This document shows positions 2,885 through 9,579 of a stretch of DNA of 9,579 nucleotides, in pieces. The stretch is from Candidatus Iainarchaeum sp. Its GTDB lineage: Archaea; Iainarchaeota; Iainarchaeia; Iainarchaeales; CSSED10-239. The position numbers and the translations under genes are program-made. Every line of letters begins with the position of its first letter. Position 1 is the first letter of the stretch. The DNA is taken from the NCBI GenBank assembly GCA_003559395.1, contig PWLL01000038.1, positions 1 through 9,579 on the forward strand. Direction: 5' to 3'. The notes under the pieces were generated by a model, which saw only the letters and a list, made by a program, of their open reading frames with translations, had not been told where the DNA came from and did not search any database.

Positions 2885-4077
2885 TGTCTAAAAAACTGCA
2901 ACCCGAAATAAATATTGGAGTCATCGGACACGTTGATCATGGAAAAACATCCTTAACAACGAAACTAACAAACACAAACACAGACAAACATTCAGACGAG
3001 ATAAAACAAGGAATATCTATCAGACTAGGGTATGCAGATACTTGTTTTTATAAATGTAAAAAATGTTCAGGACTACAAGCATATGGTGTATCAAAGAAAT
3101 GTATTCTTTGTGAAAGTGATTGTGAAATTATTAAAAAAGTCTCTTTTGTAGACGCACCAGGTCATGAAACACTTATGGCTGTTATGTTGTCTGGAGCAAC
3201 TTTGTTTAATGGAGCAATATTAGTTATTGCTGCAAACGAACCTTGTCCACAACCAAGAACACAAGAACACTTTTCTGCACTTAAGATGCATGGTATAAAA
3301 AATATAGTCGTTGCACAAAATAAAATAGACCTAGTAACAAAAGAACAAGCACAAGAAAACTATAAAAACATAAAAAAATTTTTAAAAGATGAAGGATATG
3401 AACACGTTCCAGTAATACCAACCTCAGCACACTTTGATGTGAATATTGATGCTTTAGTTTATGCTTTGTTAGAAACAATAGATACACCAGATTATAAAAC
3501 AAAAGAACCATTAAAGATGAGAGTTGTTAGATCCTTTGATGTTAATAAACCAGGAATAGACATATCAAAGATAAAAGGAGGCGTTCTAGGAGGAGCAATA
3601 CTTCAAGGAACACTTAAAAAAAACCAAGAAGTTTATCTTTATCCAGGAATAAAAAAACCAATCAAATTAAAAGTCACATCACTAAGTTCAGGAAAAGACT
3701 CTTTTGATGAAGTTAGAGTTGGAGGACTTGTGGCAGTTGGTACAGACATTGATCCTGTATGTATGTTTGGAGACAGAATGGCAGGCCAATTGATTTGTGA
3801 TGAAAAATCAAAGCCGTTAGTAGGGTCTAGAATGCAAATAAAATATCATAAGATTGAAAGACTATTAGAATCTAATCAAAAACCACTTGCAATATCAGAA
3901 AATGTTGTGTTGATAATAGGCACTGCTGCAAATATAGGAACAATTACAAAAATAAAAGGAAATGAAATAGATATAGTACTTAAAAAAGAAGCAGTCTATT
4001 ATCCAAAAGAAAAAATTGCAATCAGTAGGTTAATAAACAATAGATGGAGACTTTCTGGATATGGCGAAATTAAATAA
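2884..4077 (+). CDS. eif2g: Translation initiation factor aIF2 gamma subunit
   Basis: 397 aa. Contains 'INIGVIGHVDHGKTSLT' (G1), 'DAPGHE' (G3), 'QNKIDL' (G4) and the zinc knuckle 'CKKC...CILCESDC' between G1 and G3, characteristic of e/aIF2-gamma. The start overlaps the rps6e stop by 1 nt (TAATG). Confidence 0.95.
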   Translation: MSKKLQPEINIGVIGHVDHGKTSLTTKLTNTNTDKHSDEIKQGISIRLGYADTCFYKCKKCSGLQAYGVSKKCILCESDCEIIKKVSFVDAPGHETLMAVMLSGATLFNGAILVIAANEPCPQPRTQEHFSALKMHGIKNIVVAQNKIDLVTKEQAQENYKNIKKFLKDEGYEHVPVIPTSAHFDVNIDALVYALLETIDTPDYKTKEPLKMRVVRSFDVNKPGIDISKIKGGVLGGAILQGTLKKNQEVYLYPGIKKPIKLKVTSLSSGKDSFDEVRVGGLVAVGTDIDPVCMFGDRMAGQLICDEKSKPLVGSRMQIKYHKIERLLESNQKPLAISENVVLIIGTAANIGTITKIKGNEIDIVLKKEAVYYPKEKIAISRLINNRWRLSGYGEIK

Positions 4078-4459
4078 AGTATTGATTGATACAAACGTAT
4101 TAATATATATGTATGAAAATAAAAAAGATATATTTGATTTTGCAGAAATAGTAATACCAGATGCAAAATTTTATATCTTAGATAAAGTATATCAAGAACT
4201 AGAAAAAGTATTTAAAAAAAAACCAATAAAACTAAAAAATATACAAAAATATTTACAAAAACTAGAAAATGTGAAAAAAATACAAGAAATAAAAGTTCCA
4301 GAAGATCTTGCAGAAAAAAATAGAACAGTAGATCGTTTGTTAATCTATTATTCAAAAGAATATTTAGTATATACAAACGATAAAGAACTTAAAAAAAAGA
4401 TTAATGAAAAAAGAAGAAGAGTATTAGTTTTAAGAGAAAAAGGAGTATATTTAAATTAA
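4061..4459 (+). CDS. PIN-domain ribonuclease, Fcf1/Utp24-like housekeeping family (COG1412-type)
   Basis: 132 aa. The four PIN acidic positions are recognisable: 'VLIDTNVL', 'YQELEK', 'TVDRLL' and 'YTNDKEL'. It overlaps the aIF2-gamma 3' end by 17 nt. It occupies the conserved archaeal slot between eif2g and rpoE'. Confidence 0.8.
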   Translation: MAKLNKVLIDTNVLIYMYENKKDIFDFAEIVIPDAKFYILDKVYQELEKVFKKKPIKLKNIQKYLQKLENVKKIQEIKVPEDLAEKNRTVDRLLIYYSKEYLVYTNDKELKKKINEKRRRVLVLREKGVYLN

Positions 4460-5355: not shown

Positions 5356-5826
5356 ATGAATATAGAACTAAAAAAACAAAGAAATGATTTGCTTAAAAGA
5401 ACAAACGTTTTAGCAAAAGTGTTTGCTGTAAAAACACCAAGTAGAAAAGAAATACTTTCAAAAGTAGCAGCAATGATGGGTACTGAAGAAAAATTAATGG
5501 TGATAGATAATATTGAACAAAACTATGGAACACATAGTTCTGTTGCTTATATAAAAGTTTATGATGATTTTAAAACACTAAATGAATTAGAATCAAAATA
5601 CAAATTAAAAAGAACTGGTTTTGAAGAGAAGAAAGAAGAAGCAAAAGAAGAAGCTAAAGAAGAAGCTAAAGAAGAAGCTAAAGAAGATAAACCAGACGCT
5701 AAAGAAGAAACTAAAGAAGAAGCTAAAGAAGACAAACCAGACGCTAAAGAAGAAGTAAAAGAAGAAGCAAAAGAAGTAAAAGAAGAAACTAAAGAAGAAA
5801 CTAAAGAAGAAGAAAAAAAAGAATAA
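5356..5826 (+). CDS. rps24e: 30S ribosomal protein S24e with ~67-aa K/E-rich repeat tail
   Basis: Residues 1-~88 ('NDLLKRTNV...TPSRKEILSKVAAMMG...LMVIDNIEQNYGTHSSVAYIKVYDD') fit S24e (NPLL.R.E......TPSR.E....LA.......V.....T.FG......G.A.IYD). GAGGT (5344-5348) lies 7 nt upstream of the ATG. Residues 90-156 are low-complexity K/E/A/T. Confidence 0.88.
   Translation: MNIELKKQRNDLLKRTNVLAKVFAVKTPSRKEILSKVAAMMGTEEKLMVIDNIEQNYGTHSSVAYIKVYDDFKTLNELESKYKLKRTGFEEKKEEAKEEAKEEAKEEAKEDKPDAKEETKEEAKEDKPDAKEEVKEEAKEVKEETKEETKEEEKKE
5635..5823 (+). repeat. In-frame tandem repeats coding the S24e tail: 4 x 12 nt GAAGAAGC(A/T)AAA (5635-5682) and 2 x 45 nt (5683-5727, 5728-5772; EDKPDAKEE[T/V]KEEAK), followed by more ETKE/EVKE units
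   Basis: Direct reading of the sequence. The two 45-nt copies differ at only a few positions. Confidence 0.9.
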
Positions 5827-6084: not shown

Positions 6085-6612
6085 GTGTTTTTTATTTTTC
6101 AAATTGATTTATTTCTTTTTTTATTACCAATATTATATATATTAATAATAAATCCACAAATAACAATCAAACAACTATTCATATTACAAGGATTTACAAA
6201 AAAAAGTTTTAAAGAAATTTTAAAAAATACCTTAACAATATTTATACTGTTGTTTTTTCTAAGTTTTTTGATTAGTTTTATTTCTAATCTGTTTAACATC
6301 TCAGATTTACATCTAGTTACAGATTTTTTCTCGCAAATCCCTTTTTATTTAATAATTTATTTTTTTATAGTTAGAGTTTTCTTAGAAGAATGGTTCTTTA
6401 GAGCCTTTTTAGTAAAAAAGATAGGCTGTTTATTTTCAAGTATCTTTTTTGCAATCGTACATGCAGGATATGGATCAATAATAGAGGTTATAGGCGCCTT
6501 TGCATTAGGTTTTGTATTAGCTGTATATTATAAAAAAACAAACCATATTTTGCCAGTTTATTTTGCACACCTTATTTATAATTTTTTAGCATTTGTTTTT
6601 ATTTTATTTTAG
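6085..6612 (+). CDS. CPBP-family (CAAX protease / Abi-like) intramembrane glutamic metalloprotease, short form; start codon uncertain
   Basis: 175 aa, polytopic and very hydrophobic. The three CPBP motifs appear in order: 'EEWFFR' (EExxxR), 'FFAIVH' (FxxxH) and 'HLIYN' (HxxxN). The protein has no internal Met. The only classical start is GTG 6085, which lies inside the SD-like GAGGGTG (6081-6087), so the true start is ambiguous. Confidence 0.78.
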   Translation: MFFIFQIDLFLFLLPILYILIINPQITIKQLFILQGFTKKSFKEILKNTLTIFILLFFLSFLISFISNLFNISDLHLVTDFFSQIPFYLIIYFFIVRVFLEEWFFRAFLVKKIGCLFSSIFFAIVHAGYGSIIEVIGAFALGFVLAVYYKKTNHILPVYFAHLIYNFLAFVFILF

Positions 6613-6989: not shown

Positions 6990-7727
6990 CTATTTCTTAG
7001 AAAGTTTATAAACTGTTAATAATTGTTTAATATTTATATTATTATTATCTATATTTTCAATAATACCATTAAGATGACCAGCCCCAACAACAACAACCAT
7101 ATTAGAAAAATCTGTTTTTTGAATATTATAAGCCATATATTCATCTCTTTCATCAATAAGTATTTTTTTAATTATTTTATAGTTTTTAGAAAGAAACTTC
7201 ATAATTTCTTCAATAGACTCTTCATTTAAAGTCCCTTTTTCTACATCTTCTAATAATTTATTAATATCTACGTTATTTTTCTTAGACTTAAACAAACTAA
7301 CAAAAAACATTTTAAATATTCCAAAAAAACCAATATTTTTAAATAATTTTTTTAAAGTAATATTTATGTTTCTATCTAATAACAAAACCTTTGCATTAAC
7401 TTCTTTAGCAGATCTAACAGCCATCAACATTTCTTCACCAGGCGTTGTTTTAAATTTTTTGCCTATTCTTTTTTGATATTTAGAAAGAAAATAAACAATG
7501 ATATTAAAAATAACATCTTTATTTTTAAGTGCATCTTTAAAAGTAATTTCTTTTTTAGATTTATCTAAAAGACCATGAAGTCTATTTCTATCAAGTTCTA
7601 CACCAACAACATCTGGTTGTTCTCTTAAGATAGTTTCTTTTACTTCCTCTGCACTTTTTTTAGAAACATGTGCAGTTCCAACCAAAGTAATTTTTTTATC
7701 TTCAGAGAGATTTATTGTTTTAATCAT
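6990..7727 (-). CDS. TraB/PrgY/GumN-family protein (TIKI-like putative metalloprotease fold), short soluble form
   Basis: 245 aa. 'ITLVGTAHVSKKSAEEVKETI....PDVVGVELDRNR' and C-terminal 'VVVVGAGHLNGI' are the family's GTAH...VELD..R...GAGH signature. No C-terminal transmembrane region is present in this ORF. Confidence 0.8.
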   Translation of the reverse strand: MIKTINLSEDKKITLVGTAHVSKKSAEEVKETILREQPDVVGVELDRNRLHGLLDKSKKEITFKDALKNKDVIFNIIVYFLSKYQKRIGKKFKTTPGEEMLMAVRSAKEVNAKVLLLDRNINITLKKLFKNIGFFGIFKMFFVSLFKSKKNNVDINKLLEDVEKGTLNEESIEEIMKFLSKNYKIIKKILIDERDEYMAYNIQKTDFSNMVVVVGAGHLNGIIENIDNNNINIKQLLTVYKLSKK

Positions 7728-7869
7728 AAATTTTCTTTTTTTCTGTTTTAAATATTGTTTTTTTGTACTTGTGCTTTAAAAAAAATTATATTCCAAAAAA
7801 AATACATTTAAATATGTTAACTATAATAAATATAATATAAATAGAAGTTTTAAAAAGATGTGTTATTTT
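7728..7869. promoter_or_regulatory. Divergent AT-rich promoter region with TATA-box candidates for TraB (minus) and the surface protein (plus)
   Basis: TTTAAATATT at 7747-7756 reads AATATTTAAA on the minus strand and is centred ~25 nt from the TraB ATG, implying a leaderless or near-leaderless transcript. TATAATATAAATA at 7831-7843 is centred ~32 nt upstream of the ATG at 7870. Neither gene has an SD motif, unlike the operon-internal genes. Confidence 0.5.
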
Positions 7870-9579
7870 ATGTTCAAAAAAGGATTTATAGTATTATTGT
7901 TTATATTGTTTTTAAGTAGTTTTGTGTTTGCATATGAAATTACGGACATAAATATAATTAAATCATATACAAACGACGAAACAATTCCTTATAATGTAGA
8001 AATTTCAACAACAGGAGCAGATCCTACAGAAATATCTATTTCCTTAAACTCCAATAAACAACCAAGTGCAATTGATTTTAATGCAACTAGAGTTTCGGAA
8101 GGAAATTATGAAGCCTCTTTTTATATAGATTTTACGTCAGAAACCAGTGGTTTACAAAATGGTTGGCCAAAGATAATTGTAAATGAATATGATGGGGTCG
8201 TTGTTTCTGGAGGTATTGAATCTGATGAACTTGTTGTTGATAAGATAAAACCAACTATAGGTACTTTTACTTTAGATGCACAAGGAAACAATGTTGGTAA
8301 TTTTTATCAAGGAAATGTACACGCTCTTCCTTCTGGTTATTCTGATGAACATACATATATTGAAAAGTTTGTTGCATATATTGTGCCGATTTTGGACATA
8401 GATGATTTTAAAACAAAATATATAAAAAAAGTTGATGATACTAATATTTCGCCAATAGATTTAAATATTTCAACAAATGTAAATGATGGGAATTATTTTG
8501 TTGTAGTCGATGCAAAAGATATTGCAGGAAATTATGGTGTTGAATCAGATGTTAAAAATAAAAAAGAAATATTATATTTAGATAATACTGCGCCAGAGAT
8601 AACAAGTTTTAATTTGAACAACCAACTTGAACATGAAGAAACCTATTATGTTGGTTCTTCTAATTTTTTAATTGGCATTGGTATTGAAGATAATGGAGTT
8701 GGATTAAATGAAACAGAACCACATACACAGATAACTGTAAGAGATCCAAATGATATGTTATATAATCAATATAGAGATTATAATAGTACATTTGGTGGAT
8801 TTTATGTGCCAATAGATCAAGAATTTAATAGTGGAACATATACTATAAACCTGAAAGCTTTAGATTTATTAGAAAATATTTTAGATGTTAATTTTAATAT
8901 AACTATAGATAGTGTATCACCAGACAAAAACACTTTTACAATCTCAGAAATAGAAATAGATAACGACAGAGACGTCACAATAACCTGGACAGACGCAGAA
9001 GACGATCTCTCAGGCATAAGCCATTATGAAATCTACAGAAGCACATCAAGTTTTTCAGAAATAACAACACAAACAAAACTAGGAGAAACAACAGACACAG
9101 AATATACAGACACTTCTTCAAAATCCATTAACACAAGATATTATTACGGAGTTGTTGCTGTTGATAATGCAGGAAACAAAAGTGAACCAAATGTAGAAAA
9201 TATACACACAGGTCCAAACATATCCATAACAATAGAAGACGGAGATAGATATACAAACAAAACTCACCCAACTCTAGAACTAGAATACTCCTCAGACGTA
9301 AATGCTCTAAGATTCAGTTGTAATGGAACAAACTGGTCTTCACAAGTTGAAGTTTCTGGAACAACACACACATATAATAATTTTAATATGACCTCTGGAA
9401 ATGGATGTGATTCAGAAGAAGAACAAAAAACAATATATGTCCTAGCAATAAGTGAAACCAACTATCCAGATAGAACCTCAGTTGCAACAGATACAATCAC
9501 ATATGATAAAACAGCACCAACAAGACCAACAAACGTAGAAGTTACAGAAACAGAAGGAAAAGTAAGACTTGACTGGACA
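7870..9579 (+). CDS. Large secreted/surface protein, 3'-partial (at least 570 codons): Sec signal peptide plus tandem ~100-110-aa Ig-like modules, including at least one clear fibronectin type III domain
   Basis: Hand translation of frame 1 from ATG 7870 to base 9579 has no stop (in-frame TAA upstream at 7777; alternative in-frame ATG at 7858). The N-terminus 'MFKKGFIVLLFILFLSSFVFA|YE' is a classic signal peptide. Module linkers recur: 'DKIKPT', 'DNTAPEIT', 'DSVSPD' and 'DKTAPTRP'. The FN3 signature is 'VTITWTDAEDDLSGISHYEIYRS...YTDT......YYYGVVAVDNAGNKS' (~8920-9190), and a second FN3 begins 'PTNVEVTETEGKVRLDWT' (9526-9579). There are ~12 N-x-S/T sequons. The gene is missing from the ORF track because it has no stop codon inside the window. 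Confidence 0.88.
   Translation, partial: MFKKGFIVLLFILFLSSFVFAYEITDINIIKSYTNDETIPYNVEISTTGADPTEISISLNSNKQPSAIDFNATRVSEGNYEASFYIDFTSETSGLQNGWPKIIVNEYDGVVVSGGIESDELVVDKIKPTIGTFTLDAQGNNVGNFYQGNVHALPSGYSDEHTYIEKFVAYIVPILDIDDFKTKYIKKVDDTNISPIDLNISTNVNDGNYFVVVDAKDIAGNYGVESDVKNKKEILYLDNTAPEITSFNLNNQLEHEETYYVGSSNFLIGIGIEDNGVGLNETEPHTQITVRDPNDMLYNQYRDYNSTFGGFYVPIDQEFNSGTYTINLKALDLLENILDVNFNITIDSVSPDKNTFTISEIEIDNDRDVTITWTDAEDDLSGISHYEIYRSTSSFSEITTQTKLGETTDTEYTDTSSKSINTRYYYGVVAVDNAGNKSEPNVENIHTGPNISITIEDGDRYTNKTHPTLELEYSSDVNALRFSCNGTNWSSQVEVSGTTHTYNNFNMTSGNGCDSEEEQKTIYVLAISETNYPDRTSVATDTITYDKTAPTRPTNVEVTETEGKVRLDWT

Follow-up and report, generated by a model that had tools for sequence, protein, structure and literature searches.

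What does the long reading frame at the end of this archaeal contig encode, and what would its product do for the cell? The stretch analyzed here ("the window," the 9,579 nucleotides of contig PWLL01000038.1 from Candidatus Iainarchaeum sp.) closes with a frame on the + strand (7870-9579) that a sequence-only reading had described as a giant, sequon-rich, multi-module Ig-like/FN3 surface protein in the accessory part of the sequence, of a kind that small-genome episymbiotic archaea might use for cell-cell attachment. We have followed the frame to its end in two other, independent assemblies from the same organism: the window carries residues 1-570, the N-terminal 48%, of a 1194-residue type I membrane surface glycoprotein. 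We predict, with moderate confidence, that this is a core envelope glycoprotein of the surface-layer (S-layer) type in the Diapherotrites/Iainarchaeota (DPANN). A core structural envelope protein is favored over a variable accessory adhesin because the domain number is fixed and the gene is single-copy and present in every related genome examined, and also because of its core syntenic position, acidic isoelectric point, conserved sequons, stalk-like pedestal and transmembrane (TM) anchor.

The frame itself is secure. Translation gives 570 codons without a stop, as had been claimed; at the local base composition (A 0.405, T 0.289; per-codon stop probability 0.0855) the chance of such a run is ~7e-23, and the remaining five frames over the same interval hold 20-65 stops each. 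It was missing from the list of open reading frames (ORFs) because it runs off the end of the source, and since the window is the entire 9579-bp NCBI contig, what cuts the frame short is the end of the assembled sequence rather than anything biological. A look-up of the neighboring TraB protein led to Logan contig L001 (SRR490128), whose overlap with the window spans 3786 bases and has 6 mismatches. Two of these fall inside the ORF (9438, 9441) and leave all 570 encoded residues unchanged. This contig holds the complete gene (L001:3963-7547, - strand), 1194 amino acids (aa) counted from the window's ATG. An independent copy on a JGI soda-lake sediment contig (L011, SL_3KL_010_SED) differs from it at 2 of 4985 bases and covers residues 189-1198 in the numbering of the database copy P0002, which is the window residue number +4. 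The predicted continuation past the window is thus confirmed, and neither assembly brings an amino-acid difference over the 570 window residues. Four short antisense ORFs lie in the frame (8121-8291, 8660-8812, 8817-9017 and 9264-9461); the two that had been called shadows, of 66 aa (8817-9017, - strand) and 65 aa (9264-9461, - strand), fall wholly within the conserved + strand coding sequence and are probably just that.

The start codon is best placed at 7870. One gene caller chose an alternative upstream ATG at 7858 (MCYF...); the ortholog on L004 has an in-frame stop after the corresponding ATG, which makes 7870 the better start. A promoter-like element, TTTAAATA..TTAACTATAAT, lies about 60 nt 5' of the start codon (7807-7827, + strand) and is a TATA-box candidate; it is kept in three genomes (the window, L005 and L007) though their proteins are only 34-53% identical, and it may act as the promoter.

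The protein begins with a Sec-type signal peptide (residues 1-21; 7870-7932, + strand, as for all modules below) made of MFKKG, a hydrophobic core and VFA|YE. Residues 1-27 contain a hydrophobic window (Kyte-Doolittle >2), the F/H-A-Y/E junction past the core is kept among orthologs, and there is no Cys lipobox there; cleavage would fall at VFA|YE. The hydrophobic segment and the conserved junction together bear out the signal peptide that the sequence alone had suggested. A class III (pilin-type) signal was considered and rejected, since the Gly after KK is not conserved in the orthologs and the A|Y/E junction is.

What follows is a tandem array of beta-sandwiches, again as proposed. An AlphaFold model of the full protein, built on 16 orthologs (mean pLDDT 81), places eight modules (D1-D8) at residues ~22-835, followed by three long helices (~840-920), an alpha/beta domain (~925-1076), a TM helix (~1092-1117, also evident from hydrophobicity) and a disordered Lys/Glu/Ser-rich tail with a C-terminal helix (1118-1194). 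By AlphaFold, hhalign and Pfam, the window holds five complete modules and the start of a sixth, with boundaries at 124/125, 239/240, 348/349, 448/449 and 547/548. D1 (residues 22-124; 7933-8241) is all-beta in the model (pLDDT ~90), has no Pfam match and is among the least conserved modules (pairwise identity 0.37). D2 (125-239; 8242-8586), which carries the DGNY..VDA.D.AGN strand, is a Big_13-like beta-sandwich by Pfam, hhalign and model: it scores 33.4 bits against PF19077 (E 6.8e-8, gathering threshold 27), in a partial match whose best stretch covers profile positions 64-90 of 102 at residues 196-222, and hhalign relates it to D6 with 85% probability. The modeled beta-sandwich D3 (240-348; 8587-8913) begins at DNTAP and stops before DSVSP, and D4 (349-448; 8914-9213) is of FN3 type (98.8% hhalign probability with D6). 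D5 (449-547; 9214-9510), a beta-sandwich by motif, alignment and model, is the most conserved module (pairwise identity 0.56), and the Cys pair that had been noticed in one module is here: C484/C513 (FSCNG...SGNGC) is invariant across all orthologs and presumably forms a disulfide. The last window bases (9511-9579) open D6, an FN3 module (residues 548-644 of the full protein) recognized by Pfam and by the family profile; in the full protein, residues 552-609 match PF00041 fn3 at 28.5 bits (threshold 25), and the window fragment alone stays below the Pfam fn3 threshold. The family profile also matches the FN3 domain of chitinase A1 (1k85; 2.3e-8). Modules D1, D3, D5, D7 and D8 are all-beta with no named family match; D8 has a second Cys pair (784/801), invariant in one alignment (A1) and present in 15 of the 16 orthologs of another (A2).

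The finer motifs fared unevenly. Linkers of the form D-x-[TVK]-[ASK]-P are found at 238 (DNTAP), 347 (DSVSP) and 546 (DKTAP, given earlier as ~550), and the one at 124 reads DKIKP, with an I outside [TVK]; in the looser form D-x-x-x-P all four coincide with AlphaFold domain boundaries, so module boundaries drawn from linkers match the model except that the D4/D5 boundary at ~448 (invariant G448-P449) had been overlooked. The D..[GE]N strands are present, at 217, 332 and 432. The count of 12 sequons in the window part was correct and the enrichment was not: shuffled residues give 9.9 +/- 2.8, and the whole protein has 21 where shuffling gives 16.5 +/- 3.5, so that "sequon-rich" was rejected as a composition effect. 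Six sequon positions are kept in at least 13 of the 16 orthologs, and the ectodomain has an isoelectric point of 4.3.

Beneath the array stands what we call the pedestal, a three-helix bundle packed on a beta-sandwich, which when modeled alone forms one compact unit (pLDDT 90.6, pTM 0.78). Foldseek found no match for it in the PDB at E<=1e-3, no profile match turned up among PDB sequences, and the phmmer and profile searches yielded only FN3 (neogenin, chitinase A1). A Lys-rich stretch follows the TM helix, and the topology is therefore N-out/C-in. The suggestion to look for a C-terminal TM anchor was thus rewarded; the alternative archaeosortase (PGF-CTERM-like) signal was rejected on inspection of the alignment, where there is no PGF motif and ~80 aa extend beyond the TM helix. 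This tail is the sole strongly length-variable part of the orthologs (41-78 aa), and its last 15 residues follow an invariant pattern, F-x-x-[DN]-Y-x-[YF]-I-x-x-A-x-K-[KR]; the C-terminal peptide here is KKKFDDDYSYIMSAMKKKD. In the last 20 codons (L001:3963-4022, - strand) the motif, which comes after a disordered linker, can also be written F-x-x-[DN]-Y-x-[YF]-I-[LMI]-x-A-[VIM]-K-[KR].

How widely is this protein shared? An exhaustive HMMER search with the 570 window residues returned 1364 proteins, of which about a dozen are colinear full-length orthologs; the others are large repeat proteins with only the FN3 and Cys-pair modules in common, and most matches align at residues ~320-450 (D4, a module found in hundreds of giant repeat proteins), in up to 41 stretches per protein. 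A profile search gave 16 full-length members of 1177-1216 aa at 34-59% identity, none of which bears a functional name, so the orthologs number at least 16; one syntenic ortholog was reached through aIF2-gamma. In the JGI annotation one member is called "cell division protein FtsB" and another "TPR repeat protein"; we consider both names spurious, as they have no support beyond the helical region. A word-indexed search for homologs of the 570-aa fragment drowned in low-complexity words and gave one weak FN3 match only, and a pattern scan of the GTDB species genomes with the full protein gave no match. The family is unnamed, its Pfam and NCBIfam coverage consists of generic FN3 and Big_13 matches, and literature searches by the accessions of the metagenome-assembled genomes turned up nothing. 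Of the ~300 proteins fetched, only this family and six Diapherotrites-type proteins described below gave the pedestal profile (A3) a match to the pedestal-TM-tail unit.

The comparison of related genomes that had been proposed shows a constant domain count and length in these 16 orthologs, with module lengths differing by at most 12 residues. At 1194 aa, with orthologs fixed at 1177-1216 aa, the protein is not the giant that had been imagined. When the window is compared with three genomes whose aIF2-gamma is 59-70% identical to its own, the surface protein is 33-34% identical and the housekeeping neighbors 52-70%; it evolves faster than its neighbors, as surface proteins do. A fast-changing sequence is combined with a rigid architecture.

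It is on this point that the cell-cell attachment reading has to be weighed. The protein would then be an adhesin, an Ig/FN3 rod whose N-terminal tip binds a partner (host) cell and whose tail couples the contact to the interior. The DPANN lineage favors this, as do the poorly conserved tip module D1, the short conserved tail motif (adhesion receptors have such motifs), the presence of FN3, Big_13 and Cys-pair modules in giant repeat proteins of 3000-6700 aa as well, and the identity of the top Foldseek matches: eukaryotic adhesion and receptor ectodomains and the bacterial grappling-hook protein GhpA. These whole-model matches are, however, generic Ig/FN3 arrays with TM-scores of ~0.1 and are uninformative for function; the Pfam and NCBIfam searches showed neither a lectin nor a protease nor any other effector domain; and domain number and length stay fixed across orthologs at 33-58% identity, in a single-copy gene at a core syntenic site that is present in every family locus examined. 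Some Diapherotrites are also thought to be less host-dependent, which we count against an adhesin. With its unchanging architecture and its place in core synteny, the protein looks more like a structural part of the envelope than like a variable, host-specific adhesin, and we regard the adhesin as the less probable of the two.

The giant repeat proteins of adhesin type, bacterial and archaeal, have two modules in common with our protein, the FN3-type one at ~320-450 and the Cys-pair one at 447-553, and frequently carry 10-40 copies; they differ in their size (1500-6700 aa), in their variable repeat number and in lacking the pedestal-TM-tail unit. SPEARE-like giant DPANN adhesins reach several thousand residues and have protease or nuclease domains. 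The present protein, with 1194 aa and no enzymatic domain in Pfam or NCBIfam, does not belong with them.

The gene's surroundings are anything but accessory. The window neighbors are S28e, L24e, aIF5B, S6e, aIF2-gamma, a PIN protein, RpoE/Rpb7, Spt4, S24e, S27ae, an Rce1-like protease and TraB, in DNA of ~28% G+C. Among labeled sequences, aIF2-gamma comes closest to "Candidatus Iainarchaeum sp." (59%), followed by "Candidatus Diapherotrites archaeon" (50-53%), and the small-genome archaeal host postulated at the outset is borne out: it belongs to the Diapherotrites/Iainarchaeota of the DPANN. There is one copy of the surface-protein gene per locus, and the order TraB (-), surface-protein gene, GGR-family FAD protein (+) is found in all 15 family loci that hold the three genes. 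Where wider flanks were read (L004, L005, L006, L007 and L008), the trio adjoins an L7Ae-S28e-L24e-aIF5B-S6e-aIF2g-PIN-RpoE-Spt4-S24e-S27 block. A single-copy gene at a fixed syntenic site by the ribosomal/aIF2/RpoE block in every related genome examined cannot be assigned to an accessory part.

The upstream neighbor in the window (6990-7727, - strand; TIGR00261, 187.9 bits) is a TraB-family protein in which we detected no hydrophobic or TM segment; it lies upstream and divergent in 15 of 15 family loci with an upstream flank. A soluble protein that is always adjacent within the family, next to a type I membrane protein with a flexible tail (41-78 aa) that ends in an invariant motif, could be taken to point to a transmembrane receptor or sensor whose ectodomain binds a ligand and whose C-terminal motif recruits an effector, possibly TraB. 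We found no signaling domain, however, distant members of the superfamily have no TraB pairing (PF06695 instead) and different tail ends, and the reading is speculative throughout; we think it very improbable.

The downstream partner, the GGR-family gene, abuts or overlaps the stop codon of the surface-protein gene. In the window's subclade this partner (L001:2854-3957, - strand, and L007:13651-14754) has no GxGxxG: the motif region reads LYGTSISS or LYGDSISS, vs. VGAGPTG elsewhere. It no longer matches any NCBIfam model, and the gene (367 aa) nonetheless persists at its place in the operon; judged by its sequence, it may be a pseudoenzyme.

The lineage extends beyond the close relatives. The pedestal profile also matches six proteins that measure 1060-1180 aa and come from genomes less rich in AT; one is labeled [quoted passage not shown] These homologs are colinear with the family, align to nearly the whole of its profile (P0043 over positions 209-1129) and share the plan of signal peptide, FSC...SGNGC module, pedestal, TM helix and basic tail, which ends in a different aromatic-basic motif, e.g., KPRWKWEGG or GKFSWRPERK. 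Their genes adjoin a true GGR homolog (E 1e-70 to 1e-84) with GxGxxG intact, and a small PF06695 membrane protein sits where TraB would be. A cis-prenyltransferase gene (PF01255) lies 1.7-4 kb from the surface-protein/GGR pair at two of these loci (L055:13279-13977 and L056:10860-11558), and a block of nucleotide-sugar biosynthesis genes lies upstream in L055 (1-5179), which hints at a glycosylation-carrier neighborhood. In a Diapherotrites genome at 52% aIF2-gamma identity the gene is not found at the ribosomal-block position, a gap that would fit relocation rather than absence.

How would such a protein work in the envelope? We propose that it is exported by Sec and then N-glycosylated, that the TM helix keeps it anchored with the pedestal as a stalk, and that the acidic Ig/FN3 array would form an outer protein coat, an S-layer-type canopy. 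The adjacent GGR-family reductase would plausibly saturate polyprenol or dolichol carriers, or envelope lipids, needed for the coat, and the conserved tail motif would plausibly bind a cytoplasmic partner or the inner membrane face. GGR paralogs have been proposed to act on polyprenols, and a Haloferax volcanii GGR deletion mutant has no saturated dolichol phosphate, the N-glycan carrier; for our family, the recurrence of GGR as a partner is suggestive of a link to glycosylation or envelope lipids. The general plan agrees with that of archaeal S-layer proteins, whose typical components are Ig-like lattice domains in tandem, a stalk and an anchor in the membrane (10.1101/2024.05.28.596244), and the protein has the secreted, membrane-anchored, multi-domain beta-rich ectodomain of that class in its signal peptide, eight beta-sandwiches, pedestal and TM helix. 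The conserved TATA-like element and the site beside a ribosomal protein cluster are indirect signs of high abundance and no more than that.

The kind of object is known: it is an archaeal Ig-like, TM-anchored surface glycoprotein. The csg-type S-layer glycoproteins of H. volcanii (six Ig-like domains; PMC8640222) resemble it in the Sec signal, tandem Ig-like modules, acidic isoelectric point, sequons, C-terminal membrane anchoring and rapid sequence divergence under a conserved architecture. They have no detectable sequence homology to it, however, and where they use a PGF-CTERM lipid anchor it has a TM helix and a ~80-aa cytoplasmic tail; the helical/beta pedestal without a PDB match is a further difference, and the lattice is here only a candidate. 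Closer in phylogeny is A0A2G9N319, which the same survey (10.1101/2024.05.28.596244) lists as a Diapherotrites S-layer protein of 1039 aa, with a hexagonal (6+2) lattice predicted and its domains left undescribed. It can be compared by phylum and size only: it belongs to the same phylum and is near in size to the distant homologs (1060-1180 aa). The DPANN archaeon Nanobdella aerobiophila has surface proteins (MJ1_0299, MJ1_0309 and MJ1_0707) and an S-layer candidate (MJ1_0160) that likewise possess a signal peptide, 4-5 Ig-like folds and many sequons, and the first three also have the C-terminal TM helix seen here (10.1101/2023.10.27.564410). Their functions were inferred from expression, and the MJ1_0707-type candidates (Ig folds and a C-terminal TM helix) were proposed as anchors (10.1101/2023.10.27.564410). 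Compared by description only, these proteins come from a different phylum and have fewer modules, and the pedestal and tail motif are undescribed for them.

Several points weigh against an S-layer-type coat. A cytoplasmic tail of ~80 aa with a conserved end motif is unusual among S-layer proteins. The modules are common to adhesin-type giant repeat proteins, the sequons stand at composition level without enrichment, and the curated S-layer families gave no match (Pfam S-layer N/C and DUF1608/MSTP-type, E<=10; NCBIfam S-layer, E<=0.01). In the window's subclade an enzymatic link cannot be essential, because the GGR partner there has lost GxGxxG. Finally, several DPANN phyla use MSTP-like S-layer proteins (10.1101/2024.05.28.596244); should this clade have one too, it is not our protein that forms the lattice.

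That last observation favors a variant in which another protein forms the lattice and ours is an S-layer-associated anchor or pillar that spaces or tethers it. The C-terminal TM helix, helical stalk and beta-sandwiches resemble SlaB and the Nanobdella MJ1_0707-type candidates, and a tether or spacer role would explain the strict length conservation. SlaB of the Sulfolobales indeed has beta-sandwich domains, a helical stalk and a C-terminal TM anchor. It is encoded beside slaA, however, and forms a trimeric coiled coil; our gene has TraB and GGR as neighbors and no lattice-protein gene next to it, the model packs the three helices into an intramolecular bundle and not an extended coiled coil, and eight extracellular modules (~810 aa) are long for a mere tether. 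We therefore hold the anchor or pillar to be unlikely, and keep the coat protein as our preferred reading.

Some traits of this coat protein candidate are unusual: the pedestal fold without a PDB match, the conserved cytoplasmic end motif and the obligate GGR neighbor. Taken to its furthest, this would make the protein the founding member of a phylum-wide, unnamed class of envelope proteins in which an Ig/FN3 S-layer-type coat stands on a pedestal of unseen fold, is coupled through the membrane to the cytoplasm by the C-terminal motif, and forms an obligate pair with a dedicated, co-evolving GGR-family (polyprenol/dolichol or lipid) reductase that has decayed to a probable pseudoenzyme in the window's subclade; in this full form we find the proposal doubtful.

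Elsewhere in the window there are several features of a different nature. A 12-nt Lys/Glu-rich tandem repeat array (15-238; ORF 52-273) encodes KEETKEE repeats where relatives have L7Ae, and a second 12-nt Lys/Glu-rich array (5632-5823) forms a C-terminal extension of ribosomal protein S24e, which has 156 aa here vs. 100-114 aa in L005, L008 and L009. The PIN-domain gene (4061-4459, + strand) overlaps the last 17 bases of aIF2-gamma, an arrangement seen in all related loci including the distant Diapherotrites. An Rce1-like CPBP intramembrane protease (6085-6612, + strand) is present in most related loci and absent from L007; as a sorting enzyme for the surface protein it was rejected, since its match to MrtJ (the JDVT-CTERM sorting protease) is sub-threshold at 26.5 bits (cut-off 75), it is missing in L007, and the target is without the layout of a C-terminal sorting signal.

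We know of no Diapherotrites/Iainarchaeota S-layer or envelope protein that has been described in detail. According to the Nanobdella preprint, no DPANN S-layer or envelope protein has been determined experimentally (10.1101/2023.10.27.564410). This family is thus a concrete envelope candidate: single-copy, in every related genome examined, traceable phylum-wide and outside the curated families. It could be used as a marker for envelope studies, as a target for antibodies or cryo-electron tomography and for lattice prediction. It also offers a test case for the linkage of a surface coat to polyprenol and lipid reductases, and with it one could ask whether a conserved tail motif puts an archaeal coat protein in communication with the cytoplasm; if it should prove to be a host-contact protein instead, its fixed length would set the geometry of that contact.

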